Shown in pieces: positions 1-62,513 of a stretch of 64,000 bases of DNA. Under the pieces are notes generated by a model. It saw only the letters and a program-made list of their open reading frames with translations, had not been told where the DNA came from and did no database searches. Source of the stretch: Balanoglossus misakiensis (Eukaryota; Animalia; Hemichordata). Location: the NCBI GenBank assembly GCA_040954595.2, contig CM082588.2, positions 9,904,844-9,968,843 on the forward strand, read 5' to 3'. Position numbers and translations under genes: made by a program. Every line of letters begins with the position of its first letter. The stretch's first letter is position 1.

Positions 1-1100
1 AATGCACTTGTCGAACATCCCCAGTATGTTGTACAAGCTGAGAAACAGATAGAGAGGCTTGAAAAGCAAGTAAGAGACTTGAGTAAAGTTGACGTTGACT
101 TTTTCAAAATGCTTGATTTGGTGGCTGTGAAATGAAATGCCAGCATTTATCAGCAATCTCAAGAATTCAGTAATTACTGCAAAACAAACACTGTTGATCT
201 GAGTACACTTGATGTTGAATATATTGTCAGTGAGATTGACCCTGTGTTATGGAACACTGTTGTATATTTAACGTTGAACAACAGTGAACGCAGTAAATTA
301 AAAAGCTCCAACTTTGAATGGAATAAACACTATTATAATATACCTCATGCTAATACTGTGCCGTGATTCGCCAGAATCCGTCACGTGATAGGAAAATAGA
401 ATCGACTATGAACCGCTAGGGAAATAGCAGAAAAAATATAAACCGGTCACGTGACCAGCGTGAGTGTGCAGACTCGGTCACGTCAATCACGGTCACGTCG
501 TCAGACACAATGGCCACTGCTGAAGATGTCGTCTGCCAACCTCAAGAGAAAATTGCAAGATTTTCCCAGCTGTTAGCATGAGGTTTATTATAAAACACCT
601 ATAGCCTGGCCTATATTCGGGCCATAGCAGCCGTTTTTACCCCCTCGTGGCTGTGAGTTACCAGAATCATATGGCCAGGCAATAGGTGTTCACTATGGAT
701 TTTATGACCGGCACTCTATGGAGAGTAGAGCACGATTCCTCAGGCGTTTGTTTTGTGTGTATGCTATTGTTCACTTGTTCTGATCATTGTACTTACCCAT
801 TGCATACTTACCTGACTGACATTGTTGAAGGTTATAGTAGGTCATTTACTCTAGTGAAAATTCTAAATCGATTTGGTATTATTTGTTCTGGAGATACATT
901 GCATAGATACATGTTGGGAGTTATCAACAAAAGAACATCAGCTGATTTCATAGAGGAAAATATTGCAAATAATGCATTTTGTATAACTTCCATTGACAAT
1001 ATTGATAAATCAACTAAATATGCAGCTGTTAGAGCTGATCCAAAGGATAGAGGTTTCCACGGTACCTCTTATCAAATGGTCCAACCAAAAGCAAAGTCAA
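1..1100 (+). pseudogene. N-terminal and first catalytic part of the Academ-like transposase
   Basis: Frame 1 is open over 1-333 except TGA at 133-135. Removing 334-696 gives WNKHY-GFYDRHSMESRARFLRRLFCV. A 2-bp loss in (TG)n at ~754-760 shifts into ORF 686..1657, which has the DNID motif (Asp at 995-997). Confidence 0.8.
334..690. mobile_element. Non-autonomous hairpin element with two adjacent inverted-repeat pairs and a 6-bp flanking direct repeat
   Basis: CACTAT at 328-333 and 691-696. IR pair TATAATATACCTCATGCTAA (334-353) / TTAGCATGAGGTTTATTATA (573-592). Second pair AACACCTATAGCCTGGCC (594-611) / GGCCAGGCAATAGGTGTT (673-690). Excision restores the host frame. A partial second copy lies at ~16730-16855. 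Confidence 0.85.
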
Positions 1101-1162
1101 TTTTGAACAGTGTTGATGATATTGTTTTTGGCAGTCATGGCAAACATTCAACTGTCAAAGAT

Positions 1163-1650
1163 TTTCAGCTAATCAACATATATGGTGATGGAAGGTGCTT
1201 TTTCAGGAGCATCTCTGTGAGAAATGATTTTGCATTGCGAAATTGCGATCGTCTACCTAATGGACTCCCTTCTGACCCAATTTTAGCTGACCGAGAGAAA
1301 ATATTCGCAGACAAGTTAAGAGCAGATACAGTAGACATAATGTGTGCCAATCATATATACTTTGAAGGACTGGATGATGCACAACTTGATGTCTTGTTAG
1401 ACGGCACTCGTTATATGGACATTTTGCACAGAACACAATGTATGGAAAAGGCAGATGAATATGCTGGTATGCCAGAAATGTTATCTGTAGTGTATGTTGC
1501 AAAATGTCCATTACATATATATACACCAAGCAGAATGATATATTTGGAAGAGGAGAAACATTTGGTGATGTGTTCTCCAAGACTGAGCCTGTCTGTCTCT
1601 TGTACACACCAGACAGGCCAGGTCAATCAGGCCATTATGATTTGCTTCTT
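1163..1650 (+). pseudogene. OTU-family cysteine protease (deubiquitinase-like) domain within the transposon ORF
   Basis: Cys loop INIYGDGRCFFRSIS (Asp 1187-1189, Cys 1196-1198), ADKLRADTVD helix, YAGMPEM..V...KCPLHIY. After a +2 slip in (AT)n at ~1515-1522 comes the His loop SGHYDLL (His 1633-1635). Confidence 0.85.
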
Positions 1651-1652
1651 AA

Positions 1653-2637
1653 GGTAGTTGGAAAGGCTAGGGCGTCAGTTAAAATTTCATTTATAAACAC
1701 CGAATTTATAACTAGAAATATATTAGAGAAAAATTAAACTCATAAAAAATTCGGGGCAATAAACGTGTAACAAGATATGGCTGGTTTTATGATACCTAAT
1801 TTCATACATCTGGCAAGGAAGCTAGGGAGCCTTATTTGAGCGCCCTCTAGGGGAAGACTTCTCCTAGGCTATGCGCACAAGGACGGGTTCCCCTAGCCAA
1901 GGGCATTTAAATGTAACTTGCAAACACTGATTCTTGCAATTTTCAACGATAGATAACCTTGCTTGTTTATTAAAGGCTGCCAAATTATGGACATTTTTGC
2001 ATTTCTAGGGAACCCGAAAGGCCAGCGGAAAGGCGTTTGACCCAGATAAATGCGATCCTTCGCCGTGAACTGCCGCTAAACTTTGCGTATTTCGCTACTT
2101 TTCTGCCCTTCGCCATAATGTAATGGTTTTTATTTGTGATTGAATTGGTATGCCAGATATTTTTTTATCATGAAACTTTCAGGAAAGGCTCGGGACATCC
2201 CAAAGAACAATTTTACAGGACAGTTTTTTCATAAGTTTTCCCGTTGTGTTTTGGCAGCACGTTAAAGTTGTTTACAAAATATCAACAAAAACTGTGTTTT
2301 CCTGAGTGATAACTTTGAAAAAAATAAGTTTATGCTGAAAATGTCCCATACATTGCTTGAGGGGTTGCTTAATATTAAAATGAATACAAATTATTCAATC
2401 ATTTGTGAAAACATGTCAAGATTCAATCAATATTTTGTAAAATTATGAATATTTATATTTAGGCATATCAAATTTCTTAATTTTAGCAGATATTTTTACA
2501 GTCATATTTTTCCCTCACTTTTTAGTTTGTTAAGAATACATGCTGCAAATTTCAAGTCATTATCTTTATTCTAACTTGTGACAATAAATTCACAAACATT
2601 GAGAGAATTTGCTTCAAAAATAGCCTTTCCATCTACC
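1653..2637. mobile_element. 985-bp non-autonomous TIR transposon with TTAA target duplication (Kolobok-type termini)
   Basis: TTAA at 1649-1652 and 2638-2641. TIR GGTAGTTGGAAAGGCTA / TAGCCTTTCCATCTACC (16/17). It starts with purines rather than piggyBac CC. Removal rejoins YDLLL-NRQLIKSKD. Confidence 0.85.
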
Positions 2638-2641
2638 TTAA

Positions 2642-3020
2642 CAGGCAGTTAATTAAAAGTAAAGATAGTCTGGTGAATGAAAATGCACAGAATTCATTTG
2701 AACGGTGGCAGGAATTAAACAGTGGCTTTTGTTCATAAAATACAGTAGACTCTGAAATGAATGAATTTTTTGGCGATTTTCCTTGTGGAAATAATACTAA
2801 AATCATGGTTGACAGATCTACCTCAAAAATACTGGTACAGATTTGAGTGCACCTGTGAGAAAAGCCCATACATTTACAGAGAAAAAATCTAATGATACTG
2901 TTCATGATGATGTAGTATTTAATTAAACCACCTCTACTGAGACAACATCAACCACAGTCATCAATTTCGCTGTCAGATTTTGACATTAAACAAGACGAAT
3001 CCATTGCTTGGTCAGAACTG
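2642..3020 (+). pseudogene. Continuation of the Academ-like ORF after the OTU domain
   Basis: In frame with GHYDLLL once the TTAA element is removed. Degenerate peptide ..APVRKAHTFTEKK..SISLSDFDIKQDESIAWSEL with stops and shifts. Confidence 0.55.
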
Positions 3021-3666
3021 TTTTCCATAATACCCAGCACTGATTTTTTTGTGACAGTACACAGTACGATATTTCACCCACAATTCTCCATGATTTGTAT
3101 CATTGAAGGTTGCCCATTTAATAACTTTTTCTGTTTTATATACTTACAATGATATGAAGTACATATAAATCTATTTATTTTTATCTAGGAAAAGTACGAT
3201 TAGGAATTAGAGTGAAAATTTCAAAATCAAAATTTAAAAGCCATAGAAATCAAAGTATCCATGTACTGCAAATGTCACACTTTGGAGGAAACAAGCAATG
3301 ATTGACTGAAGTGGCCAGTCTCTGTTGAAAGTTAACATGCAAATTTCCATTGTTCTGTCAATAGAAAAAATCAATATCTTTTTGTTTGATTAAACAGTTG
3401 TTTCAAGTGACCCTGTTTTACTCCAAACTTTTTTGTATGGCTGGCTATACAATTGCTTGATTATTTTATAAAATTCGTATCTCCTCTCTCAATAATGCAT
3501 AATTTTCTAAATCATTTGAAATGGTAATTGACAATAAGATTCACCTTAAAGGTAAGATCTCAAAATTTCTATTAGTGGTCTACAATTCTCTCTACACATG
3601 TGAACTTTGCCTGGTTTGACTGAGTAATCTCTGATTGTACAAATCAGAATGAATTATGGGATATTT

Positions 3667-4290
3667 CACGTACTGTGCAGAAGGGCAAATACAGACAAAA
3701 CTTTCAAATTTTGGGTTAGATTTATAGAGGAAGATTTGTTTGCATACATGTCTTTGTACATTGCAATAAGGTCAGGAAATTGGAACCTTCGAATATTGGC
3801 TTTGAAAAAAAATGAACCCACTGTTCCATGCATATGACCGATCCCTGTACTTGAGGTTAATTCCCAGACATCTTGCTGACCTTCTGAAGATGCCAAACTC
3901 TCTGTTGTTACATTTCAAAGCAGGTGGTTTTGTTAGCAATTAGTCAGGCTCAACTTGGGTTAATGTAGCACTAGTTGAAGCCCATGAAATGTGCGTCAAT
4001 AAAGATGTTAAAGCTGCACTGCATACTTCTACAGGTGGGTTAATGGAGAGAATAGCAATTTATTTACCCTATAGAGCTATGGCTGCCAAGAATCTAAAAT
4101 ATCAGTTATTTCCTTTCCAAAATGAAACCCATAATTCAGTTAGCGTACATAAAATACATGAGTCAAACTGCAGGTTGTATATCAATTGTCTTGAAGGTGC
4201 TGATGTATTTTCACTACTTAATACCGCCAGGGAGCTAACTAATATATTTTCAGATGACACAGCAAAATATAGCATCACGGACACTGTGGT
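3667..4290 (+). pseudogene. C-terminal part of the Academ-like transposase domain
   Basis: ORFs 3649..3837 and 3989..4345 join through a +1 shift in the A-run at 3805-3812 and a TAG at ~3941: KKMNPLFHAYDRSLYLRLIPRHLADL..GGFV..VALVEAHEMCVNKD. Confidence 0.75.
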
Positions 4291-4399
4291 CCCATTTGAG
4301 GATTATGTGGAAATAGTGACACACCAGAATAAAAATTACAGGTGACATTGCAAGCAGATATGATCTTACGATATAGAAACATGGAATGTAAAAAAATTA

Positions 4400-5140
4400 A
4401 CAAGGAACATGACCAAAAATTGTCTGTACAAACACATATGAGAAGCAACTTCTTTCAGTCAGCCCTGGAACAGACAGACAGACACACACACACACTGACC
4501 TGCCACTAGTAATTAAAAATTTAATAGCCCATGATCTCTCTAATAGCTGGCTTATTGAAGTTATGTAAACATGTCTAAGTTGGGGGTAACAACTCCTTGT
4601 AAACAGTAACTTTCAAAACAACTGGACAATTTGTTTAGGAGAAAAAACTCGCTAAATATTGAATATTTCTGATATCAGAATTGAATAAAAGTTGCACATA
4701 TATACGTATGTGTTAGGAAATTATATCCTAAATTTCAAAGCAATCAGAGAAAAAACAAATTTCAAAGCAATCAACAAGCAGTTTCACAAAAGATATTTGT
4801 TCAAAAGTGGCAAAAACACAAATATGCAAATATCACCAAAATTGTACAATATCTTACTTCAATCACTTCAAGGAACATGCTGCCAAAGTTCAATGCAATA
4901 TGACAAGCAGTTTCAGGAAAACAATTTTTTGACAAAAATTGCAAAAGTTTCCCCGATAACACATTTATGAAAATATCACATTTTGTTCAACATATTACTT
5001 GGGTTACCCCTACGAACATGCCTACAAAATTGCAAAGCAATCTGGCATGCGGTTTTAAAGAAAACAAAAATTTACCAAAAATGACAAATATTGCTCAAAA
5101 TTATAAATATGCAAATTTTTCAACAAATAGGGACAAGAGT
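4400..5140 (-). repeat. Degenerate interspersed-repeat fragments replacing part of the Academ ORF
   Basis: (CAGA)n(CA)n at ~4470-4495. AATTTCAAAGCAATC-like motifs at ~4731, 4758 and 5028 are the reverse complement of the GATTGCTTTGAAATTTG motif repeated at 17.8-19.3 kb and 21.7-22.1 kb. Confidence 0.5.
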
Positions 5141-5142
5141 CT

Positions 5143-6431
5143 TTTCGTCGGTAGTAATGGAATTGTGTCTGAGTGGGAAGCCAAAAGTTGTCATGAAGAA
5201 GCTGACAGTAGATGCATCCTTCATGCAGTTCAGTCCTCTTACAAGAAAGGTGTTATTTACTCCCCTAATATCGATACTTATCATGTTCTCCTCCCAGTAC
5301 TATATCAACATGTTCAAAAGGAGATATTTGTACAACTTGATAATGATTTATCAAATCTCACTTATTTAGACATGAATCAATTCAAATCAGATTTAAATTT
5401 AGACCCTGATTTGCAACATATTCCTCTCCAATATTTAGGCAAAATATTTCAAACACTGTTCATATGCACAGGTTGTGACTATACTTTGCAGGCATTGGAA
5501 ATAAATCTTTCTACAAGACATTTTTTCAATACTCTGAATTTATAACTAGTGGCACCCTTATACCTGGAACACTGATAGACACAACAGTAGACAGTGTAGG
5601 GAATGGAATTTTTGCTTTCATACGTTTAAAAGGTAGTGTTTATGTTAAGAAACATTTCCAAGCATTTGATGCATCTCATCCTTTTGAACTTTATCGACAA
5701 GTAGCCAGTGTCACTAACAGTCTTAAAGATAACCACATCAAATGGCTTACATATATACGAGAAACAATTTGGCCACGTATCCAGTATGAGGAAGAATGTA
5801 TCCCTTCCTTTGAAGCCCTACAACTGCACTGGAACAGATCATGCTGGGTCTCTCAGTTATGGTCCCAGGCCGATCAGTGCCATGTTACGTTTCCCTTATT
5901 CAATAATTATGGATACAGACTAAGCAACGGCGAACTTGATATTATTTGGGACAGTGATGCCAATTTAGAAAAAGTAAAACTAATTTGGAGTTGCTAACAA
6001 AAGGGTGTGGCTGCAAAAAGATGCCAACTTGTAATAGCAGATGTTGTAAATGTTATAAGACCCACAATGGTTGTGGCCCTGCGTGTCGATGCAATGACTG
6101 CAGTAATCCACATAATGGGAACCCTGGATTCTGTACCACATCGAAAAAGTATGGGGTATACCCAAAATTTACAGATAAGTCACCACTATTAGAATCACCA
6201 TCACCAATCACTGATACTGAACATCATAATATGGAAAATAGCATCGATGCAATTTTACAGGAGGAGTCACATGAAATTGACATTTTAAGAGAAGAAGAGG
6301 GAAATATTTACGAGACTGATTCTGACTTTGACGAACTGACTGATGAATATAACTGGACGGAAGAAAATCAAACTGATAATGCAAAGAATGGTGATTGTGA
6401 TTCCAATGATGGTGACTATGATGACATTTAA
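5143..6431 (+). pseudogene. XPG/FEN1-like nuclease domain, Cys8 (CXC-like) finger and acidic C-terminus of the Academ protein
   Basis: HEEADSR (5192), SPNIDTYH, H3TH-like GCDY..FAGIGNK with a frameshift at ~5485, a long open frame to WDSDANLEKV, a shift at ~5983, Cys cluster ~6007-6105, then an Asp/Glu-rich tail. Confidence 0.8.
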
Positions 6432-6464: not shown

Positions 6465-8120
6465 GGGTTGCAGCCCTGTTGTGGTTTCAGTCATACCTTT
6501 CCAATCGCACCCTGTGTGTATGTGTTAATTTCAGACATGGTTACTATAACCGTGTTCCAAACAATCACCATTTTATCCGCTTGACACTGAGGGGACACAG
6601 GGATCAGTTCTTTGTCCTATACTTTTTAATATGTACACTTCTCCATTAGGTGAATTAGTTTCTAGTCATGGATGCCTGTATATAGCTTTTGTGCAGATGG
6701 CTCTTCATTGTCTTTTACCAAGCAGAATGCTCCCAGAATGCTTTCAAATCTTGAACGTTGTATTTCAGATGTCGGTACTGGATGTCTGAAAATGTCTTGT
6801 GTTTAAGATGGGTCCCTGGGATCTTTTTGCTCGTTGCTATGGGCCTTTATAGGACACTACACTCAATTTTGATCGAAACCGTTATGAACGTCCGACAAGG
6901 GGCTTGTAACTAGTTAAAAATACACACGATTGTGTGAACACCCCCTGCCCGAGTATGTTTACGGCAGCTACCGCCCGGCCATAGGCCGCCACGCTAATAC
7001 AGCAAAGCAGCGGTCATCGATAGCGTGCGCGTCCTGTAACCACAGTAACTGGATCGAACGCTAAAAATCCAATGTTTTGTACACAGAGATTTTGTACCGT
7101 TCACGAAAATCCCTAAGGCTTTTTTCACAGGCTATGTAGGCCAGCCAAATTTGACCTGCTTGTTGAGAACGCACTTCCGCACAGTGTGACGGATCGTTTT
7201 TTCGGTTTTCGTCGTGCTAAGAAGCGATACCAGTGGAAGAGTGCGTCCAAAAACACCCAAAATCGATGACTTTTTCAGGTGTGGTACGGGTATGCTGAAA
7301 TCGTATGATACAACGATAATATTCGAAAACAAAATCCGTCACGATCTTCCCTGGTTCAAGCAACTAATGAATACATATCAAGTTCGTTTTTGAGGTCACG
7401 GAATAAAAAGCCTTAGGCTTTTGAAATTTGACCTAACTAATTTGCATATCAATGGCGTCAGGGGGCGCGCGCTCACAATCCTGCAGATTTTCAACTAGTT
7501 ACCAGCCCCTTGTTAGACTCTGAAAACGGCTTAGTCCAAATCAGGTTGTAATGTCCTATAAAGGCCCATAGCAACGGGCAAAAAGATCCCAGGGACCCAT
7601 CTTAAATAACGATAAGACTGAATTTGTTATTTTTTCTGCTACTTCGGGTAATCTATCTGCCAGAGGGATTACAGAAATTCATGTTGCGATGCTCTGAAAC
7701 CTGTTCATTGACTGACAATAATTGCACAGATCTGCCATTCAGTCGCTTTTCATTTGCAGCATATTGCACTTGTCTGTAAATATTTATCTCAAGCCGCCAC
7801 AGAGCAATAAAGTTCCTGCTTTTGTTGCATTTCGAATAGATTCGTGTAATTCACTTTAATTTGGACTCCCTAAGTACTAGATCAGCCGTATTCAAGTTCA
7901 AAATATTGCTGCTAGTTCCAAAATCACCTTTTACATCAATGCAATTTCAGTTGCATTGGTTACCTGTGTCTGATTGTATTGTTTTCAAGATTTTATTTCT
8001 TATTTTTGAATTCATTCATAGACTTGGACCATCAAATCTGTGTGATATGATCAAATTATATGTTCCAAATCGAAACTTGAAGTCAGCTGATCAGCTCAAA
8101 CTCTTTCCTGTTCAGCCCAA
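6465..8120 (+). mobile_element. Degenerate, 5'-truncated L2/CR1-group LINE (reverse transcriptase C-terminal half)
   Basis: ALLWFQSYLSNRT, QGSVLCPILFNMYTSPLG, LERCISDV..WMSENVLCL|NNDKTEFVIF (split by a MITE), LHWLPV..FKIL..YVPNRNLKSAD. Confidence 0.85.
6807..7601. mobile_element. 795-bp non-autonomous TIR transposon with TTAA target duplication (Kolobok-type termini)
   Basis: TTAA at 6803-6806 and 7602-7605. Near-perfect ~55-bp TIR starting GATGGGTCCCTGGGATCTTTTTGC, extending imperfectly to ~115 bp. Removal restores the L2 peptide CLNNDKTE. Confidence 0.92.
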
Positions 8121-17779: not shown

Positions 17780-19320
17780 ACTACTGGTCAGATTGCTTTG
17801 AAAAGTGGTATGCACGTTTCTTATGCCAACATCATAGAGCTATATAAGTTCTAAGCTAATATCGTGAATTATCTACTTTTTATGAACGTTTTGTCGTTTA
17901 ACACAATGGTAAAATATTTTCTATGAAAGTAATTGGCTGATTTCTTTAACATTTAGTATAAAGCTTCCTATAGGTGTAATTGTTGCAAAGTTTGCACATT
18001 TGTAATTATGAGCCAAATTTTGCAATTTTGGGTCAAAAATCGTTTTCTCTGAAACCTCGCGCTTGTCAGATTGCTTTGGAAATTGGTAGGCATGTTCTCA
18101 GGGTTAAGCAATTGTAAGTTGTTTAAACATTTTGCTGAAATTTGCTTATTTGTGTTCTTGAGGTAACTGTTGTGATTTTCTCGTTGAAACCACTTGTCAG
18201 ATTGCTTTGAACTTTGGTAAGCATGTTCCCATCGAAGTAAGATATTGTAAAATTTTGGTGATGTTTGCTTTTTTGTGTTTGGCAGTTTTGGGACAGTTTT
18301 TTAAAATTAGATCATATCTACTTTTTTGGTATTAGGTCATTAACAAAAAATTAAGTCATAGAGTTGGTCACACATCCTACTTATAGCACAAGTGTGAGAA
18401 TACGACCAGTTTGTGTCGCGTTATCTGCTTTCATTGAGGAATTACAGCGCCCGCAAGTAAGGTGTTAATGTCACATTTGTATTAGTATATTCCAGTGGGA
18501 CCTTATGAGATTGGTTGCATCTGTATGGATGTATGGGAGTATGTCCATCCACATCAAAAACTTGAAGACCGCTACGCGTACAACCTCGATATTTGGTGTG
18601 TAGATGCATACCGGTTTGTAGATGGGAGTTTGTTCAAACGAAGTTGTCATAGCCAAAAATATGCAAATTTTCTGGGAAAACCTAAATTTGGTAAAAATTC
18701 AGAAAACTAACAACCCCTGGTCGTAATGATTCTGTATGTTTTGAGGTAATAGTGTGAATTTTCTATTTTTTTGTGCAATTTTTGCCCTTTTCTACATTTT
18801 TGTTAACAAACTACCTTTCTGGAACTAATCAGCCCACCTCTTTGAAATTTAGTATGGAGCTTCATATATGATCTGACTTATCAAAGTTTTGTTTAAATTG
18901 CTGCCAAATTTTTACATTTTTGATCATTTTTTAAATGTAAAATCGCTCATAAATTGCTTTGGAAATTTGCATGTATGTTTGTCAAATCAACTAGGAGAAT
19001 TTAATATTATATTTTTGGGGTGATTTTTGCCATTTTTGGTCAAAACTCTTTCTCAGAACCCTCTACCCTATTGCTTTGACATTTGATTTAAAGGATCCTG
19101 GGTGAGTTGTCATGATAATTTACAAAACCTATGATGAAAGTGTCAATGCTTTTTGTGGGCAATATCTTGTATTTTGTGGGGCATATTTTCCAATTTTGAA
19201 AAATAATATTTCCCAGTGTATTACTCTAAAATTTGAGTTAATAGTATTGGCTTCTTTAGAATTATAATGGAATTAAATTATAGGTAATTCGGAACTTTTA
19301 TATTTTGTAGGATATTTTGC
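17780..19320 (+). repeat. Highly diverged tandem repeats, probably from Helentron-associated elements; a second patch at ~21680-22150
   Basis: Recurring CTTGTCAGATTGCTTTGAAATTTGGTA-like motif (17788, 18062, 18194, 21822, 21972, 22077) in T-rich context. Confidence 0.55.
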
Positions 19321-19479
19321 TGTTCATTTTGGTGCATGGACAGTGTTGGCCTGTCGATTTATCTATGTTTAGGAAATTTGATCAAATTCAAACTTGAATT
19401 GCATTGAATCAATTTTAATTCCCGCCAAAAACACTTTATTGACTACAAACGTTTGTTTTGTTGGATGGGTAAAATTTAA

Positions 19480-21480
19480 GACCTCTCGACCAACGCAGAG
19501 TGAAGTTTAATACTTTTGAAGTTGTCAAAATCGACTAAACAGAGCGAGAAAAACGGCAATTTGCGCTGTCGGCACATTTCGTCTCCTGCCTCGAATTATC
19601 GACACCAGGACCCCCCTCCCCCCCCCCAAAAAAAAAAATATATCAATTATGGTTCATCACATAACTAGACTGTGCATCGTTCATGAAATCAAACTAGACG
19701 ATGGACAAAACAGCAGAAAAACTTCGCCGATTCCGAGGTAAACCTATCCCGACAGGATAAGAATTCCGCTATGTGACGTCATCTAATTTCCTTGCAATCA
19801 TGGCTTGGTCGTTACTTCGGGAATGGCACATAATCTTCTCGCTTCGGCCTTTAATTTCCATGACCCCGGTTGTTTCGGCCAAGACGCAAACTGATTCTTC
19901 ACTTTGTAGTTCAGTAAAGTTGGCGAATGGGATAGTCTGTTAATGGTGAATGCAGGCCTGTACGCAGTGCTAGCGAACGGGACTATTGACATAAAAAGCG
20001 AGCCTGGTGTCAGATTAGTGGGACTGTCATATCATGAACACAATACGGGAGGCGTGATAAAGGCATTATAAAGACCGAGCGTGAAACAGACATGGAAACG
20101 ATCGACAGTACGGTACAGTGGCTGTGGGTAGAGCGAGCGTGTTGCTGTGCCGAACACATTTACCATGTTTGTTAAATACAACCATGGACGTAAAAAGAGA
20201 AGGACTTCAGACTGCCTCTTAAGCCCATTCACACCTATTGTGTTCTCTTTGTCTATGCTGTCCTTTGATGTCTTTGGTGACTGTTGCTGCTGTATATGTA
20301 CACAGTGACACACCCCCTCGGGTACTCTCAGCAGTACTCACGACAACTTGCTGTTTAAGTCACAAAGAAGTGGTAAATTACTGTAAAATTATCACCATTT
20401 GTGTGTCTCGATGTAACGGAAATAAAGAAGTGAAAACAGAAAAAATCGACGCATATTTGACCAAATGGCGAACCGATCTTTATAAGCATGCTAAAAAACA
20501 AGACATTTTAAAATCACTCTCACTTTAAAAAGTTCAAGGGTCCTACGTCTAATTTTTGCATTTAGGAGGAGACGAAGCAATAAACTTTCAGAAAATGTGC
20601 GTCTTATATGCAGGAGCACATGGCCATTTTCGCTATCCACGTTCGGATTTTGCCAAATTTCGCGAAGTGCGGTTACTCTGTCGCCATAGGATTACACGTC
20701 CATGGTTTGAAATGCGCGGCTGTGGTAGAAAATTACCCACTGTTCTTTGGGGCGTGAGCCACCCCCCTGAGACAATGGTGCACTCACACTCGAGAACATA
20801 GGTGCGCTATTTGCATATACAAATGGAATATTCCTTCGAATGCGAGCATGTTCCAGTGCGTTCTAAAGAAATAAAATATGCAGCTATAGCATGTATGCAT
20901 ATTCATTAGTGTGTCGTAATGCTAACTTTGGTCTGTGATTGGGTAACAAGTCCCACTCTCCATAACAACAGGTGATCATTGACCCGTTTCCGGTGTGCGA
21001 CGTCGGGTTTCAATCACTTTCCTTCTTACTGCCGCGGGATCAAGACGTCTTTTCGGTAGGCTCATAATCCAGTCGTTGCTTTTAGTACCATAGCCTATAT
21101 AGCTACGTTACCGTCGCTCGATTGTTTTGTCTGGTATTAGGTGATTTGCAGCTATCCGTTCAACACCTTGTAGTTGAACAGAAGTAGGTCTTATTCCAGA
21201 AAAAAAATCCGAGCTACGGGCGTGCAGCTAGCCATGCCTCTCGGCCATTCTGTGTATGGCTTCGCTGCTGACCAGGAGGTCATAATCGAGAAAGTCTAGT
21301 CATATTTATAGGGTTATACTCTGTGAGAATTTTATAGCTAGGCCTCTTGCCTAAGCGCGCGTAGGGCCATTGTTTGCATTTTTTTACGGTTTAAACTTGG
21401 TTGGTGTATTTTCGCGTTTCTGTTTGTTTTGTTTTTTGTAACATTTTACTGTTTACATGTTGTTGGCGTATTTTCGCTTT
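19480..21480. promoter_or_regulatory. CpG-rich, island-like segment (possible promoter, or young TE interiors)
   Basis: Visibly higher CpG density than the flanks. CRE palindrome TGACGTCA at ~19774 and ETS-like TTCCGG at ~20988. No ORF of recognisable family. Confidence 0.3.
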
Positions 21481-23991
21481 TCTGGTGAGATTTCCACCTC
21501 ACCGTTGGTATACTTAAACAATTATCCTAATTTTTATTGGGCAAACCGAGAAAACCAAAACCACCACAAGTAAAGAAAATTGTAATCTGTTTGGTGATAA
21601 CCCTTTTAGCTTTGAGAGATAACCGATTTAATGTTTTAGTAAAACCAAATTTTTGACCAGGGTGACAAGCATTTTTTTCTCCAAGAGTCGTGTTGCTTTG
21701 AAGCATACATCTGGATATATGGTCCCAGTTTATGAAAACCTGGTTGATGAAAAATGTGCATATTTATAATTTTGTACTATTTTTTGTCTTTTGTGGTCAA
21801 AAATTGTTTTATCTAAAACTGCTTGTCAGATTGCTTTCAAATTTGGCAGGGTTTTTCCTTGGGAATAATTAAGTGAGATGTTTTAGAAAAATACTTGAAA
21901 TTTGCATATTTGCGTTTTGTGTGTGATAGTTGTGGAATTTTTCATCAAAAATTATTTTCTTTCAAACTGCATGTCAGATTGCCTTGAGCTTTGGTAGGCA
22001 TCTTCCCTGAAGCGGTTGACGTAATATATTGTACAATTTTGGTGAAAATACTGATTTTTCTGAAACTGCATGTGGGATTGCTTTGAAATTTGATAGGAAT
22101 ATTGCAATGGGTAACCCAAGTTTTGTCTGATTGTGTTGATTTCCCTATACTGAGACTCGCCAAGTACACTATATGTTTTTATTACTAGGGAGTTCAGAAT
22201 CCAATATGGCCGCCATACGAACTGGGACATACTGTGTAATCTGATTATTTTCTAAACTTGACATATTTTAATTTCTCGATCTCACAAATAAAAATGAAAT
22301 GCCAAAAATTGAGTAACTTTCGTTTCTTCCTGCTTGTTGTCCGTTAAAGTCTTTTTCCTCCCACTGGGAAAGTGGCTAGAGTCAATATGTGCATAATGGC
22401 AGCATTATATGGCACTGAATAAATGGCAGGGGTGTTTACATCTCCTAATTTGTTTTCACTTAAACCATTATAAATATCTAACAGTATATGATCATATTGT
22501 GTATGCAACTCGGAGATGCGTTTCACTTCAGGGTTGGAAGTTTGTTTAGTCAAGTCTGGGAAGTGACATGTCTTCAAAGTGACTGATGTTATCTGCTTAG
22601 AGCTGAATGCCCATGGGTGTTCTTTCCTAGAATACATTTTCTTTGCATTTCATAGACCTGTGTATAATTATAATTTCAGTTATATATTCTAATTTGCGTT
22701 TAGGTAGAGTATGCATGGAATTAAAATAATTATTCTGTAATTACCCAACAAAAATGTTTCTCTTACAATTGTCTAGCAAGTGGATATTTTGATTGTTAAT
22801 TTGCACAGGCAACATTATGGAAGTAGCATTAAGAGTATTCGATAATATAGCAGACCTTCTAGCCAGAAAGAAGAGCTTAGAAGATTTATCAGCTCATAAT
22901 ATTCATTTAACCAATGAACTTTATATGAACTTGCACACCTGCCTTCAAGATACAGGAATTAATGTTCAGGAAACCTTACCAGCTCTAGTACATTTATTTC
23001 AGCCAGAAATTGAATTACCAGAAAAAAAATCAGTAATGTTAGAAAGACACAGTCAGAAAATAAATGGAGAAAGCCAGCAAGGAAGGCAGAAAAGTGGAAT
23101 ACATGAAAGACACAGTTTGCTTAAACTACGTGTGTATGCAGTAAAAACTGTATGGTGCAAGGACGTTCATTTTTATGATTTATAGCCAGCCAGTCTTTCC
23201 ATGCATATCATACCAAAATTAATATGAAAATCGTGTTAATGTTAATAGACTACAAGGATAGTACAGATACATGTAGAACGTACACTATCCAACTTTCTCC
23301 ACTTTTGATATCTGCTCAACACAGGCAAGCAAAAGGGCCGATCTGAGAGTTTGACTTGAATGATGGCAATTTTTGCTGTCCAGAAGTAACTGTATAAAAT
23401 AATATTTGGTAGTAGTATAATTGCTCAAAATACACAAGAATTTAAATATTTCCACTCACTACAGTGATTGAACTGATTTTCAGCAAATTGCAGTGTATAA
23501 ACAAATATTGCCATCTAATGAAATATCAATCCAATATGGCCGCCCATTTGCAATGGTAAAATGCTAGGTTTTTCCTTTTTTGAGCGCCTGGGAATTTAAA
23601 TTATAATCCAGATATCAAAAACTTAAGTCACTATCTGTATCTGCACATATATTGTAATATATTCTGAAAATTTCGTTACAATTAGATCAACTATGATTGA
23701 GACACGGAACATCAAACATTGCAAAATTTCATATTTCCCATGGTGCCATGCAAAAAATAGAGATTTTCTTTACAAGTTTAGATGATCTCCTGTAAAACTG
23801 AAAGAAGTATTCTTCTGTGAATCGTGCATAATTTTTTGAAAAATGTTGAAGATACTTGAGAATATCAGTATTTTTTGATGCTTTTGTACCTTGAAAACCA
23901 GTGAACCGATTTTGATAATTGTCTTTATTATAACCTACAAAGACCTATAAACATTTTTATCAGTAAAATAAACGGCCTTATATAATTTTAC

Positions 23992-41999: not shown

Positions 42000-42660
42000 T
42001 TCTTTCATTCTTTTTTTTTTGTAGGTCCCACCGGTACTCTTCTCCTTCTCTCTCTCTTTCTTTCTTTCTTTCTTTTTTTCTCTTCTTTTCTCTTTTTTTT
42101 TCTTTTTTTCCCTGTAGGCCCCAATGGTAACACCATAATCAACCTACTAACGTAAAATTTGATGGATGGATGGAGCGGAGTGTCAACCATAGTCAACCTA
42201 CTAATATAAACTTTGATGGATGGATGGATGGAGCGGAGCGTCAACCATAGTCAACCTACTAATATAAACTTTGATGGATGAATGGAGCGGAGCGTCAACC
42301 ATAGTCAACCTACTAATATAAACTTTGATGGATGGATGGTGGAGCAGAGCGTCAACCATAGTCAACTTACTAAAATATAAACTTTGATGGATGGATGGTG
42401 CCGCGGAGCGTCAACTTAAAGGATGGAGAAGTGGAAGGATGGAGAAGTGGAGTTTTTCTCTGTTTTTTCCTCTTTTTCTTTCCTGTAGGGCACACTGGTA
42501 ACACCATAATCAACCAACTAACGTAAAATTTGATGGGAGGATGGAGCGGAGTGTCAACCATAGTCAACCTACTAATATAAACTTTGATGGATGGATGGAT
42601 GGAGCGTCAACCTAAAGGATGGAGAAGTGGAAGAATGGAGAAGTGGAGTTTCAACATAAT
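42000..42660 (+). repeat. Pyrimidine tract plus ~55-58-bp minisatellite containing (GATG)n, locally duplicated
   Basis: GTCAACCATAGTCAACCTACTAATATAAACTTTGATGGATGG repeated over 42180-42415 and again at ~42553. Confidence 0.85.
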
Positions 42661-44200
42661 ATCCTCTTGACCGAAATTATAAGATAGAGTAATATAGACG
42701 TACAAAACGAGGTGATCGTAATATAAAACTTAATAGTCCAATAAATCGGGTTAATAATTGGTAGTGATTACTTGTTTTAAAATTAGGTTAACAGCAATGG
42801 CTTTGTGCAGGGTATGATAATAGGTTCCGAAATGTGTATGGTATAATAACGGTGAACACATTTGAATTTGGTTTAATAAAAGGGTTACAAATGTGATGAT
42901 GGTTTTATGGTAAAATTTGAGTGTACACAGGTTATAAAGGGGTAACAACGGTTGCTTGTATGAAGGGAATAATATTAGGGTAACAAATGTGGTATAAAAA
43001 GGTATAACGGGTTTATAATATGATGATGGCTTGTGTACACAGGTTATAATGGGTATATGAATGAGAAGGGTATAATAATAGTAATAACTGTGTCGGGTTT
43101 AATAAGGGTAACAATTGTGCAAGGTATAATAACGATTAATAATTGTGGTGATGGCTTATGGTGATATTAAGTATAAAAAGGGTGTTAATATTGATGATGA
43201 TGACAGAGGTATAATAATGATAAAATGTTAAATAAGTGTCCAAGGTCTAATAATCATGTTGGTTCATTCATTGGTTAATGTGTATATTTTATGAATAACA
43301 TGCTATTATTTCTCAGATAGATAGTACTCGTCAGCATCGTTATTCGGTGGAATTTCTCGCAACGGTACCCGTGATTGTATTCGCGCATCGACACATTGTA
43401 CGCGACAGACATGCAGAAAATGTTAGCACAATGTTAGGTTAGCTTAACCTCCCCACCCCATCCAAATTCCAAATTTAGCTTAGATCATGGGGTGAGAGGA
43501 GGAGAGGACAGTTTTTTTTCCCTCTTTTGTAATTGGTATGAGGTTTTTTAACTGCCCTTTAGGCGCGTAAATTAGATGTGTTATCATACATGTAGTTATC
43601 TTGCTTTATTTTAAAACAATTGCGAATGAGCTCTGCGAGATTATGTACACGATAGTGTGTTATATAATGCTAAGGTAAAAGTAAACTTAACCCACTAACC
43701 CATCACACTATTGTGTGCATAATTAGCAGATGCTATTTTGACTGGCCCATTGGTCAACCAAATGACACCTTGTTTCAAAAAGAGCTGAAACTATATTGGT
43801 TAACTTCTTTCAGTTTAACCACATGACACATTGTTTCAAATTGGCCTGCAAGATATGCTACTTGAACTTCCCCCCCCCCCCCACCCCCACCCCCCAAAAA
43901 CAATAAATTAGGGATTAATCACTCGCTATATTATGAACATTCACATGAAAATTATGCAACCAAATTAAAGGTATTCTGGAGGCGTCTTCTGATGTCAGGT
44001 GGTTCAAATCCACCGATACCTAAGCTGGAAACATAACTTTTCATTGGTGTTCATATATGGCGAATAAAACACGCATATTCGTATTATCATATTTCAGAAA
44101 TGAACGAATTGAAATAGATTCTTTTCGATATGTCACTATAAACTTTAATCCCATTTCACCCCTTTTACTCAAAATGTAATGTTTAAATAGCAAAGAAGTA

Positions 44201-47200
44201 ATCACTAAACTTTGACACCGGGGTTTAAAATGCATACAGGGATACTAAAAGTTGACTGAAATCCCTTGGTTAATACGTGTCCAAAAGCAATCCTATTTGA
44301 CATTGCTAATGCAATGATGACATTGAATTTGATTCTTTGCATTAGGGGGAATGGCGATGCAAGCTTGATGATGCAGCCAGGTAGATAGTGATGCAAACAC
44401 TTCACTTTGACATAGGTATTTAATGCATGTGCATGGGTATTTAATGTTGACTGTAAATCCCCAGGTTAATACGTGGCCAAAAGCACTGTAATTTGACATT
44501 GCTAATGCTACCGTGACACTAAATCTGATTCTTGCATCAGGGTAAATTGTGAAGCAAGCTTGATGATGCATCATGATAGATGGTGTTTCAAGCCCTTCAC
44601 ATTGACATTGGAATATAACGCATAAGGGGATTTAAAGTTGATTGTAAATCCTCAGGTTAATACGTGGCCATAAGCAATGTAATTTGACATTGCTAATGCA
44701 ACGATGATATTGAATCTGATTCTTTGCATCAGGGTAAATGGCGATGCAAGCTTGATGATGCATCACGGTAGATATTGATGCAAACACTTCACTTTGACAT
44801 GGGTATTTAATGCATGCGCATTGATATTTAAAGTTGACTCTAAATCCCGAGGTTAACACATGGCCAAAAGCACTGTAATTTAAAATTACTAATGCAAGGG
44901 TGACATTGAATATGGATAAATGGTGGAGCAAGCTTGATGATGCATCATGATAGATGGTGTTTCAAGCCCTTCACATTGACATTGGAATATAACGCATAAG
45001 GGGATTTAAAGTTGATTGTAAATCCTCAGGTTAATACGTGGCCATAAGCAATGTAATTTGACATTGCTAATGCAACGATGATATTGAATCTGATTCTTTG
45101 CATCAGGGTAAATGGCGATGCAAGCTTGATGATGCATCCCGGGAGATAGTGATGCAAACACTTCACTTTGACATGGGTATTTAATGCATGCACATTGATA
45201 TTTAAAGTTGACTCTAAATCCCGAGGTTAATACATGGCCAAAAGCACTGTAATTTAAAATTACTAATGCATGCGTGACATTGAATATGGATAAATGGTGA
45301 AGCAAACGTGATGATGCATCAGGATAGATGGTGTTTGAAGCCCTTCACATTGACTTTTGAATATAATGCATATGGGGATTTCAAGTTGATTGTAAATCCC
45401 TAGGTTAATACATGGCCAAAAGCACTTTTATTTGACATTGCTAATGCAACAGTGACATTGAATCTGATTCTATGCATCAGGGTAAATGGCGATACAGGCT
45501 TGATGATGCATCACGGTAGATAGTGATGCAAACAGTTCACTTTGACATGGGTATTAAATGCATATGGGGATTTCAAGTTGATTACAAATCCCTGGGTTAA
45601 TACGCATCCAAAAGCACTGTAATTTGACATTGCTAATGAAATGGTGACATTGAATGTAATTCTTTGCATTAGGGGAAATGGCTAAAAAGCTTAATGATGC
45701 ATTGGAGTAGATGGTGATGCAAGCTATGCATTTTGACATAGGTATTTAATGCATGTGCATGGGTATTTAATGTTGACTGTAAATCCCTGGGTTAATACAA
45801 GTCCAAAAGCACCGTAATTTGACATTGATAATACAACGGTGATATTTAATCTGATTCTTTGCATCAGGGCAAATGGTGAAGCAAGCTTAATGATGCATCG
45901 GAGTATATGGTGATGCAAGCTCTGCATTTTGACATAGGTATTAAATGTATATGCATGGGTATTTAAAGTTGTCTGTAAATCCCCAGGTTAATACGTGGCC
46001 ATAATCACTGTAATTTGACATTGCGAATGCAACAGTGACATTTAATCTGATTCTTTGCATTAAGGCAAATGGCGAAGCAGGCTTGACGATGCATTACTGT
46101 AGATAGTGGTGCAAACACTTGGCTTTGACATGGGTATAAAAAGCATATGGGGATTTCAAGTTGATTATAAATCCCGATGTTAATACATGTCCAAAAGCAC
46201 TGTAATTTAAAATTGCTAATGCAAGGGTGAAATTGAATCTGATTCTTTGCATCAGGGCAAATTCTGAAGAATGCTTGATGATGCACCAGGGTCAATGGTG
46301 ATGCAATCACTAAGCTTTGACACCGGGGTTTAAAATGTATACAGGGGGATTAAAAGTTGACTGAAAATCCCTGGGTTAATACAAGTCCAAAAGCACTGTA
46401 ATTTAAAATTGCTAATGCAATGGTGACATTGAATGTGATTCTTTGCATTAGGGGAAATGGCTTAGCAAGCCTAATGGTGCATCAGAGTAGATGGTGATGC
46501 AAGCTCTGCACTTTGACATAGGTATTTAATGCATATGCATGGGTGTTTGATGTTGACTGTAAATCCTCAGGTTAATACGTGGCCATAAGCACTGTAATTT
46601 GACATTGCTAATGCTACAGTGACATTGAATCTGATTCTTTGCATTAGGGCAAATGGCGAAGCAAGCTTGATGATGCATCACGGTAGATATTGATGCAAAC
46701 ACTTCACTTTGACATGGGTATTTAATGCATGCGCATTGATATTTAAAGTTGACTCTAAATCCCGAGGTTAACACATGGCCAAAAGCACTGTAATTTAAAA
46801 TTACTAATGCAAGGGTGACATTGAATATGGATAAATGGTGAAGCAAGCTTGATGATGCATCATGATAGATGGTGTTTCAAGCCCTTCACATTGACATTGG
46901 AATATAACGCATAAGGGGATTTAAAGTTGATTGTAAATCCTCAGGTTAATACGTGGCCATAAGCAATGTAATTTGACATTGCTAATGCAACGATGATATT
47001 GAATCTGATTCTTTGCATCAGGGTAAATGGCGATGCAAGCTTGATGATGCATCACGGTAGATATTGATGCAAACACTTCACTTTGACATGGGTATTTAAT
47101 GCATGCACATTGATATTTAAAGTTGACTCTAAATCCCGAGGTTAATACATGGCCAAAAGCACTGTAATTTAAAATTACTAATGCAAGGGTGACATTGAAT

Positions 47201-50200
47201 ATGGATAAATGGTGAAGCAAGCTTGATGATGCATCATGATAGATAAATTACTAATGCAAGGGTGACATTGAATATGGATAAATGGTGAAGCAAGCTTGAT
47301 GATGCATCATGATAGATTGTGTTTCAAGCCCTTCACATTGACATTGGAATATAACGCATAAGGGGATTTAAAGTTGATTGTAAATCCTCAGGTTAATACG
47401 TGGCCATAAGCAATGTAATTTGACATTGCTAATGCAACGATGATATTGAATCTGATTCTTTGCATCAGGGTAAATGGCGATGCAAGCTTGATGATGCATC
47501 CCGGTAGATAGTGATGTAAACACTTCACTTTGACATGGGTATTTAATGCATGCACATTGATATTTAAAGTTGACTCTAAATCCCGAGGTTAATACATGGC
47601 CAAAAGCACTGTAATTTAAAATTACTAATGCAAGCGTGACATTGAATATGGATAAATGGTGAAGCAAACGTGATGATGCATCAGGATAGATGGTGTTTGA
47701 AGCCCTTCACATTGACTTTTGAATATAATGCATATGGGGATTTCAAGTTGATTGTAAATCCCTAGGTTAATACATGGCCAAAAGCACTTTTATTTGACAT
47801 TGCTAATGCAATGGTGACATTGAATCTAATTCTATGCATAAGGGTAAATGGCGATACAGGCTTGATGATGCATCACGGTAGATAGTGATGCAAACAGTTC
47901 ACTTTGACATGGGTATTAAATGCATATGGGGATTTCAAGTTGATTACAAATCCCTGGGTTAATACGCATCCAAAAGCACTGTAATTTGACATTGCTAATG
48001 CAACGGTGACATTGAATCTGATTCTATGCATAAGGGTAAATGGCGATGCAGGCTTGATGATGCATCACGGTAGATAGTGATGCATACAGTTCACTTTGAC
48101 ATGGGTATTAAATGCATATGGGGATTTCAAGTTGATTACAAATCCTTGGGTTAATACGCATCCAAAAGCACTGTAATTTGACATTGCTAATGAAATGGTG
48201 ACATTGAATGTAATTCTTTGCATTAGGGGAAATGGCTAAGCAAGGTTAATGATGCATTGGAGTAGATGGTGATGCAAGCTATGCATTTTGACATAGGTAT
48301 TTAATGCATGTGCATGGGTATTTAATGTTGACTGTAAATCCCTGGGTTAATACAAGTCCAAAAGCACCGTAATTTGACATTGATAATACAACGGTGATAT
48401 TTAATCTGATTCTTTGCATCAGGGCAAATGGTGAAGCAAGCTTAATGATGCATCGGAGTATATGGTGATGCAAGCTCTGCATTTTGACATAGGTATTAAA
48501 TGTATATGCATGGGTATTTAAAGTTGTCTGTAAATCCCCAGGTTAATACGTGGCCATAATCACTGTAATTTGACATTGCGAATGCAACAGTGACATTTAA
48601 TCTGATTCTTTGCATTAAGGCAAATGGCGAAGCATGCTTGACGATGCATTACTGTAGATAGTGGTACAAACACTTGGCTTTGACATGGGTATAAAAAGCA
48701 TATGGGGATTTCAAGTTGATTATAAATCCCGATGTTAATACATGTCCAAAAGCACTGTAATTTAAAATTGCTAATGCAAGGGTGAAATTGAATCTGATTC
48801 TTTGCATCAGGGCAAATTCTGAAGAATGCTTGATGATGCACCAGGGTCAATGGTGATGCAATCACTAAGCTTTGACACCGGGGTTTAAAATGTATACAGG
48901 GGGATTAAAAGTTGACTGAAAATCCCTGGGTTAATACAAGTCCAAAAGCACTGTAATTTAAAATTGCTAATGCAATGGTGACATTGAATGTGATTCTTTG
49001 CATTAGGGGAAATGGCTTAGCAAGCCTAATGGTGCATCAGAGTAGATGGTGATGCAAGCTCTGCACTTTGACATAGGTATTTAATGCATATGCATGGGTG
49101 TTTGATGTTGACTGTAAATCCTCAGGTTAATACGTGGCCATAAGCACTGTAATTTGACATTGCTAATGCTACAGTGACATTGAATCTGATTCTTTGCATT
49201 AGGGCAAATGGCGAAGCAAGCTTGATGATGCATCACGGTAGATATTGATGCAAACACTTCACTTTGACATGGGTATTTAATGCATGCACATTGATATTTA
49301 AAGTTGACTCTAAATCCCAAGGTTAATACATGGCCAAAAGCACTGTAATTTGACATTGCTAATGCTACAGTGACATTGAATCTGATTCTTTGCATTAGGG
49401 CAAATGGCGAAGCAAGCTTGATGATGCATCACGGTAGATATTGATGCAAACACTTCACTTTGACATGGGTATTTAATGCATGCGCATTGATATTTAAAGT
49501 TGACTCTAAATCCCGAGGTTAATACATGGCCAAAAGCACTGTAATTTAAAATTACTAATGCAAGGGTGACATTGAATATGGATAAATGGTGAAGCAAGCT
49601 TGATGATGCATCATGATAGATGGTGTTTCAAGCCCTTCACATTGACATTGGAATATAACGCATAAGGGGATTTAAAGTTGATTGTAAATCCTCAGGTTAA
49701 TACGTGGCCATAAGCAATGTAATTTGACATTGCTAATGCAACGATGATATTGAATCTGATTCTTTGCATCAGGGCAAATGGCGAAGCAAGCTTGATGATG
49801 CATCACGGTAGATATTGATGCAAACACTTCACTTTGACATGGGTATTTAATGCATGCACATTGATATTTAAAGTTGACTCAAAATCCCGAGGTTAATACA
49901 TGGCCAAAAGCACTGTAATTTAAAATTACTAATGCAAGGGTGACATTGAATATGGATAAATGGTGAAGCAAGCTTGATGATGCATCATGATAGATGGTGT
50001 TTCAAGCCCTTCACATTGACTTTTGAATATAATGCATATGGGGATTTAAAGTTGATTGTAAATCCCTAGGTTAATACATGGCCAAAAGCACTTTTATTTG
50101 ACATTGCTAATGCAACGGTGACATTGAATCTGATTCTATGCATCAGGGTAAATGGCGATACAGGCTTGATGATGCATCACGGTAGATAGTGATGCAAACA

Positions 50201-61740: not shown

Positions 61741-61749
61741 ATGGTGAGA

Positions 61750-61879
61750 TGTTGTTTGCTCCCCAGGGAGTTGAATGGAATAGTAAGGTCCAACGACCTA
61801 GGTCAAATTACCATGGGACAACTTTAAAGCATGTTGAGATTTAATGTGCTACATAAGTTATAAATATTATATTAATATT
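61750..61879 (+). mobile_element. 3' part of the SINE seen at 63470-63825
   Basis: GTTGTTTGCTCCCCA..GGTCCAACGACCTAGGTCAAATTACCATGGGA matches 63681-63820. Confidence 0.75.
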
Positions 61880-62513
61880 TAGGGGTTATTACACGAATTT
61901 TGGTCGATAACGCGTTGTATTCGAGTGATGTCCGTATTTTGATGAGTTGCGCTTCGCAACGAGTCAAAATACGGACATCACGAGAATGCGTCGCGTTATC
62001 GACCAAAATTCGTGTAATAACCTCTTTATCATACATGCCTACCTATAAAACAGTACGATTTGCAGAAATGCGCCGAGAAAAACAATTTCAAATTTGAACC
62101 GGGCGCTGGGATCACAGTAGTAGCCATGTTGTGACGTATGACGTGTGGGCCGTAGTATCATTTTAAGGGGGTTGGCAGCTTTCATTACGATGGGCACATC
62201 CGCATTCTAAATAAAATTGTCTACGTTCTCTTTCAAAATATCATGTTAACAATTATTTTGCATTGAGAATTTCGAAGAACTAAAAATGATGCATTCAACA
62301 TGACAAAACCGCCAGCTTTGAAAACTTTATTACAGCTTCTAATAACCGAATTTTACAACACCCCTCTCCACTATGCCCCGTGTGTCGCTCGCGCGCGCAG
62401 TGAACTGTCACACCGAGACGCGGACACGATATTTTCACATTGTGAAATACCGTAAAATATCTTCGGGGCGAGAACAATAGAAAGTGTTAAATACTGGCGT
62501 TGCATGTATGATA
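61880..62513. mobile_element. Non-autonomous hairpin element (~140-bp near-perfect hairpin plus second IR pair)
   Basis: GGTTATTACACGAATTTTGGTCGATAACGCG (61884) / CGCGTTATCGACCAAAATTCGTGTAATAACC (to 62022). TTATCATACATGC (~62026) / GCATGTATGATAA (62502). TAATATT on both sides. Absent from the paralogous site at ~63820. Confidence 0.88.

Follow-up and report, generated by a model that had tools for sequence, protein, structure and literature searches.

In AcademX transposons, an XPG nuclease is fused behind the transposase and a Cys8 finger stands at the C-terminus, and AcademH elements have a helicase gene and a TSD of 9-10 bp. In the available part of PMC10045372, AcademX is given as the nuclease-encoding group with TSDs of 3-4 bp. 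OTU domains have been described on other transposons. Cut-and-paste transposases of the Ginger1 type end in a C-terminal OTU or Ulp1 domain, for which a role in transposition or DNA repair was proposed in 2010 in the accessible text of PMC2836005, where OTU domains in Helitrons are also cited. Ginger1 resembles the family described here in having a DDE transposase and an OTU in one chain, in its occurrence in aquatic invertebrates plus an aphid, and in the same proposed link to ubiquitin and repair, as far as the covered part of PMC2836005 goes. It differs in that its OTU trails a Gypsy-like integrase at the C-terminus, whereas the Academ family has the domain embedded within the core of an unrelated transposase. 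OTU-carrying Helitrons likewise show OTU as animal transposon cargo, but they are rolling-circle elements without a DDE core. The initial annotation was right that OTU cargo is known from some Helitrons and viruses, but the theme is commoner than it stated, as is illustrated by Ginger1, cited above, and by presumably hAT-like transposases at two loci (L003 and L004).

Academ elements with an OTU in the core represent a family-wide architecture that is apparently undescribed within this recurring theme. No published OTU in an Academ element was found in the literature searched, whose reach ended short of Kojima (2020), Yuan and Wessler (2011) and Repbase. Academ is mentioned in PMC10294476, on bivalves, with no OTU in the main text or in 12 of its 33 supplements, and in PMC10799480, the covered part of which never names OTU; in that of PMC5751038, OTU appears once, as a general filter. 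Dada elements, considered as further OTU carriers, were dropped; the Dada paper contains neither 'protease' nor 'ovarian'.

Layout and state of the copy in the window

The window, that is, the whole 64 kb stretch of DNA that was analysed, holds an element copy at its start, which was read from 1 to 6431 (Table 1). This copy is a dead AcademX-type transposon with an OTU in frame behind the first catalytic block. Full-length homologues (tblastn of P0135 and P0015; P-numbers denote homologue proteins) were collinear with the window from 34 to 6395. The 5′ end of the element lies outside the window, which begins within the ORF.

Table 1. Coordinates of the element copy, its motifs and its nested inserts in the window
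Feature	Position	Strand or frame	Evidence or remark
Upstream transposase frame, one stop at 133-135	1..333	+ (frame +1)	tblastn of P0135, P0015; profile match 139-354, E 1.5e-14
Nested insert 1, 363 bp, CACTAT at both borders, two split inverted repeats	334..696	.	Skipped by X1, X2 contigs
CACTAT borders of insert 1	328-333 and 691-696
Open frame	686-1657	+2	Window ORFs
Academ-type transposase: pre-core helices, first catalytic Asp (DNID), HGTS strand, QPK	697..1090	+	Frameshift near 750-768
DNID	995-1006	+2	Window translation
FHGT	1055-1066	+2	Window translation
VQPK	1079-1090	+2	Window translation
OTU-fold cysteine protease domain: GDGRC, YAGMPE, slip, GHYD	1157..1650	+	Profile, motifs, fold of homologue P0097
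GDGRC	1184-1198	+2	Window translation; same open frame as DNID
Catalytic Cys of OTU	1196-1198
YAGMPE	1460-1477	+2	Window translation; same open frame as DNID
2-nt slip in AT run	near 1515-1522
GHYD	1630-1641	+1	Beyond the slip
Catalytic His of OTU	1633-1635		Reached across the slip
27-nt arms of insert 2	1643-1669 and 2621-2647
TTAA borders of insert 2	1649-1652 and 2638-2641
Nested insert 2, Kolobok-like non-autonomous element 1653-2637 plus TTAA	1653..2641	.	Inverted arms; skipped in X1, X2, X4 contigs
Decayed post-OTU linker and beginning of next conserved helix	2642..3020	+	Weak profile match, E 0.0016 (among six frames)
DNA without family match; second catalytic Asp region (GD, GDWH) absent here	3021..3663	.	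Profile positions 754-1101 unmatched
Transposase helical insertion part and last catalytic motif (VEAHE; DE.HE in relatives)	3664..4306	+	tblastn, profile; frameshift near 3806, stop 3941-3943
Repeat DNA replacing first half of XPG-like domain	4307..5122	.	Profile 1319-1575 unmatched; related copies at window 17987-22121
Second half of XPG/FEN1-like domain (EEAD, SPNID, GCDY), frameshift near 5482	5123..5979	+	tblastn, profile
Cys8/CXC-like finger and acidic tail, stop 6429-6431	5970..6431	+	Pfam TCR E 0.003, below curated cut-off

Most of what had been claimed for this copy held up. As the initial annotation stated, a single frame leads from the DNID, FHGT and VQPK block into GDGRC and YAGMPE, GHYD follows a 2-bp slip in an AT run, and the catalytic Cys and His of the OTU are both present. 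Homology in frame +2 begins only near 750-764, behind another frameshift, in both tblastn and profile comparisons. The transposon-like peptide said to resume after the TTAA insert was recovered as a weak linker match, but it contains stops. The copy is dead, as proposed, with more damage than had been noted: extra frameshifts were found, and the family profile was unmatched at positions 754-1101, where the linker and second Asp should be, and at 1319-1575, which cover the front half of the nuclease-like domain. These two gaps therefore make the copy dead beyond the defects listed previously.

The proposed reconstruction, in which both inserts and the slip are deleted, was matched by contigs of other DNA sequencing runs. 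Contigs of runs X1 and X2, which come from one sample, skip 331-691 and 1648-2636 and are without the 2 nt at 1515, and X4 contigs also skip the latter interval. The rebuilt ORF thus matches real sequence. One X1 contig spans QPK to the OTU Cys (1067-1369), and a second contig form in X1-X4 misses 146 bp of the OTU. No gap was reported in the contigs at the frameshift near 750-768, so the contig copies are probably defective too; they are either alleles or paralogues of the window copy. Between the window and the contigs (774-1394), 16 of 24 differences were non-synonymous, which fits a decaying copy. Contig depth was around 40 on single MITE flanks and 1,400-3,800 on several X1 Academ contigs; this hints at many copies, but as depth does not equal copy number it was not counted as evidence. 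RNA run X7 yielded 0 reads in the roughly 6% of it that was covered, a share too small to bear on expression.

In insert 1, an internal segment (573-611) is complementary in turn to the left end and to the right end of the insert, which has a 6-bp border repeat; we take this layout to be reminiscent of tyrosine-recombinase elements of the DIRS or Crypton type. The insert had high depth in X1 and X2, and a partial second copy lies at window 16731. Insert 2 bears other flanks at 1649-1650 in the contig comparison. Its TTAA borders and GG..CC ends fit Kolobok rather than piggyBac, GG..CC ends being the Kolobok rule in the covered part of PMC9587614. Downstream, the copy is adjoined by an inverted-repeat element at window 6802-7606, with 144-nt arms (81% complementary) and high depth in the runs. 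At window 42001-62000, 20 kb show a steady positive GC skew of 0.13-0.24 after around 16 kb of negative skew; this stretch could reflect a tandem array or a single long unit of transcription.

The OTU domain and its place in the transposase

The claim that the segment is an OTU was supported by both profile and structure prediction. An OTU profile based on 10 homologues from outside the window (it is circular for those 10) matched the window with E 8e-34 in frame +2 and 2e-9 in frame +1, and it had no other match at E < 1 in the six frames of the 64 kb. The window's own OTU stretch received an Atlas score of 0.93. Pfam alone gave 0 families for the window's OTU ORF, a PDB sequence search with the window OTU gave a chance match only, and a PDB search with the family profile returned no OTU or XPG match. 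Among 30 proteins scanned, Pfam OTU was above the cut-off in P0003, P0009, P0013, P0056, and P0123. Pfam OTU overlooks many of the transposon members, so cargo of this sort is probably under-annotated; P0003 is already auto-labelled 'OTU domain-containing protein' in databases.

The structural model of homologue P0097 (pLDDT 85) matched OTUD1 and OTUD3 with a Z of 13.7 and an rmsd of 3.0 Å over 133-135 residues. Its structure matches at ranks 1-31 were all OTU or related DUB, with nairovirus OTUs within Z 12-13.7. The fold is common to OTUD1, OTUD3, DUBA/OTUD5, yeast Otu2, and nairovirus OTUs (PDB 4bop, 4bou, 3tmp, 7pl7, 6dx3; Z 12-14), as are the motifs G-D-G-x-C and H-x-D of the cellular and nairovirus domains. 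Identity to them is only 13-21%, however, and the transposon subtype differs from known OTUs by an extra C-x-R..G-x-P loop behind the catalytic helix. Judged from the modelled fold, which alone leaves the substrate unfixed, the domain is likely a deubiquitinase.

The catalytic Cys and His were invariant in all of the 17 OTU domains selected as complete, and the residue at His+2 was Asp in 14, Asn in 2, and Glu in 1. The selection left out the degenerate P0005, P0153, P0008, P0033, and P0100, the internally deleted P0106, the fragment P0012, and truncated domains. Cys, His, and the G-x-G-x-C loop were among 8 invariant columns at a median OTU identity of 36%, compared with 43-44% for the core and 17% for the linker (17 proteins). 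OTU identity tracked core identity pairwise (Spearman 0.66, permutation p 0.0002), and the domain is co-inherited with the transposase. Several lineages have kept degenerate OTU-like inserts at this site, and in the three that were aligned (P0005, P0153, and P0008) Cys and His are gone.

Along the family's protein, the first Asp is followed by the OTU, a linker, the second Asp and the Glu, and then by the acidic nuclease-like domain and the Cys8 finger. In the model of P0003 (1,197 aa, pLDDT 78, pTM 0.59), OTU matches at around 482-667 were nested within the transposase matches, which included the P-element transposase (Z 12.9, 352-1194, rmsd 6.3 over 351), Hermes (Z 9.6), Tn5 (Z 8.4), and integrases (435-1197). 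The predicted strands run in the order 441-450 (first Asp), 464-474, OTU plus disordered linker, 856-863, 893-897 (second Asp), and 919-923. The model thus puts the OTU within the RNase H core, after the first catalytic Asp and before the second, and from the strand order we infer that the insertion separates strand 2 from strand 3 of this fold. This placement, and the frequent loss or degeneration of the domain in relatives, were absent from the initial annotation. The distance from DNID to DE.HE was 646-718 aa in 14 proteins with the OTU vs 406-471 aa in 10 proteins without it.

The family has in common with the AcademX lineage one large ORF with DNxD, GD/GDWH, DE.HE, an acidic nuclease-like domain, and a Cys8 finger. 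The Academ motif D-N-x-D and the RNase H fold were both found, from motifs and fold matches, with the published profile compared by eye only. That profile, in the covered supplement of PMC5751038, has 465 positions and opens with D-N-x-D, so that its majority form leaves no space for the insert. The length of the profile agrees with the OTU-less relatives, whereas the present family has an insert of around 230 aa with the OTU between the first and second Asp and, in two full loci, an SGNH/GDSL exon upstream. In the nuclease-like domain the motifs EGM, FD, HEExD, SxDxD, and GxDY/F are conserved, and we take them to fit XPG/FEN1. Atlas gave weak leads for this domain (Pox_G5 0.82, XPG 0.78-0.79), and Pfam and PDB profile searches gave no XPG match. 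The eight finger cysteines were invariant in the 9 of 9 rows covering them, and the finger had weak TCR/CXC matches (LIN54 CXC, E 0.002 with the family profile). No helicase match was found among four ORFs scanned in the two full loci.

Relatives, hosts and history of the domain

Word-index searches with the window stretch gave no match; a HMMER search did, with 591 matches at E up to 0.001 among 1.84 billion representatives, of which 150 were listed. Among these 150, the first-Asp block was followed by an OTU 12-41 residues behind it in 19, the block and the downstream core were present without an OTU in 25, only an OTU was present in 4, and 102 were uninformative because they end too early or diverge. 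Four of the 19 OTU-bearers matched the OTU profile weakly (P0005, P0008, P0033, and P0100). The query contained the OTU, so the ranking favours OTU-bearing matches. A second search returned 12 long proteins, of which 10 were new; 9 of these 10 had the OTU, and two of them are the proteins of loci L001 and L002.

These loci come from a metagenome-collection scan (four loci, L001-L004, out of 114 pattern matches). Unbroken ORFs were found at L001 2039-8443 and L002 2904-9056, with 2,134 and 2,050 codons, and the DNA of the two loci is only around 64% alike in the best stretch. The OTU is thus, as had been proposed, a family trait rather than a one-off, given the same-site domain in relatives and these intact single ORFs. 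Of the three refuting conditions named in the initial annotation, none was borne out, the third (that such families are already catalogued) within the literature searched. A search for intact copies with TIRs and TSDs had also been suggested; the unbroken ORFs supply intact coding regions, but no TIR above noise was found in L001 and L002, whose 5′ ends probably lie beyond the contigs, and no TSD of 3-4 bp was seen either.

An SGNH/GDSL hydrolase exon was observed at L001:52-985 and L002:490-1449 (mutual identity 25%, E 1e-17; Pfam Lipase_GDSL_2). It has a basic tail and a matching splice acceptor and donor, lies 1-1.5 kb 5′ of the transposase ORF, and likely belongs to the element. No relatives of it were found in viral contigs or among the collected homologue proteins.

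Named OTU-bearers are Branchiostoma lanceolatum, Patiria miniata, Acanthaster planci, Amphiura filiformis, and Owenia fusiformis, and Asterias rubens records fall in the cluster of P0161. The OTU is degenerate in Ptychodera flava and, by cluster membership, in Strongylocentrotus purpuratus, and B. floridae, Antedon, and Lytechinus are OTU-less. The closest named match to the window OTU, among those listed, was a Saccoglossus kowalevskii gene model (55% over 82 residues), a hint, though no proof, of a hemichordate host. A Saccoglossus acetylcholine-receptor gene model, P0031, ends in a piece of this OTU, probably because gene prediction fused a transposon fragment to it.

The same OTU subtype was also observed ahead of transposases at L003:1104-2834 and L004:786-3204, which we take from their motifs to be hAT-like, and behind another transposon-like protein in P0154. 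The subtype thus moves between superfamilies.

In quick trees built without the insert, which were unrooted and had no outgroup and in which the window row sat on a long branch, OTU-less rows were nested among OTU-bearing ones, and at least four state changes were needed. A single clade of OTU-bearers was rejected (AU p 5e-12; 19 rows of a quick tree, with the group picked after viewing it). Several OTU-less rows are gene models in which predicted splicing could conceal the domain. Sister families with and without the domain are represented by P0162/P0164 and P0149/P0169, respectively. Since every OTU-bearer has the same site and subtype, the most economical reading, and the one that best fits these sequences, is that the OTU was probably gained once and lost or inactivated several times.

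Possible function of the domain

The reading we favour, with a probability of around 0.6, is that an active deubiquitinase is borne to the transposon ends by the core and acts there on the transposase or on nearby chromatin or repair proteins. The protease would be tethered to the transposition complex through the RNase H core in which it sits. In active families it would strip ubiquitin in cis off the transposase, or off chromatin or repair proteins at the cut ends, and the outcome would be a longer life of the enzyme or a steered repair of the breaks. Weighing against this, 25 of the 44 informative matches among those listed are without the OTU. The frequent loss marks the domain as an accessory, not a requirement. 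The wider picture is tentative, and we hold it at somewhat below even odds: an undescribed, ancient marine-invertebrate Academ lineage with a working deubiquitinase in the RNase H core and an SGNH esterase exon, in which the protease would control ubiquitin in cis at the element's own breaks, and whose sister families have kept, lost or inactivated the graft.

An active OTU might instead counter silencing in trans, removing repressive ubiquitin such as H2AK119ub or hitting host defence proteins as viral OTUs do, with its core position incidental. Viral OTUs do tie with cellular ones in the fold search, and the occurrence of the same subtype on presumably hAT-like transposases means that it functions in different settings. 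However, the domain is fixed at one site, in frame, across deep branches, it co-varies with the core, and the full loci L001 and L002 showed no stand-alone OTU gene, and we regard this alternative as unlikely. A ubiquitin-binding or structural module with dispensable catalysis would agree with the persistence of degenerate inserts lacking Cys and His at the same site in P0005, P0153, and P0008; it is made distinctly improbable by the invariance of Cys, His, and the G-x-G-x-C loop at 36% median identity.

The OTU fold can cleave at Gly-Gly, the protein is multi-domain and around 2,000 aa long, and in its nuclease-like domain 10 of 12 rows retain one GG pair, so that processing of the element's own polyprotein in the manner of a viral papain-like protease could be considered. 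Cleavage close to the OTU would break the catalytic core in two, however, the linker GG occurs in only 4 of 16 rows, and OTU-less relatives share the same layout, which leaves self-processing with very little probability. Repeated loss, with the state changes on the tree, is also what speaks for a neutral passenger, or for a fusion peculiar to this one genome, but the domain is found in amphioxus, starfish, brittle star, and annelid proteins with invariant catalytic residues; this last explanation is already largely refuted and hardly tenable.

Ubiquitin and SUMO proteases recur on many unrelated transposases, and no test of the 2010 proposal (PMC2836005) was found in the text covered. With intact single-ORF elements, sister families with and without the OTU, and degenerate versions at hand, the role of an active deubiquitinase in transposition is directly testable. 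The family indicates that a DDE core can accommodate a whole enzyme of around 170 aa between its first and second catalytic residues. If the favoured reading is true, the families keeping, losing, and inactivating the graft would constitute a natural experiment on the capture of ubiquitin proteases by transposons.
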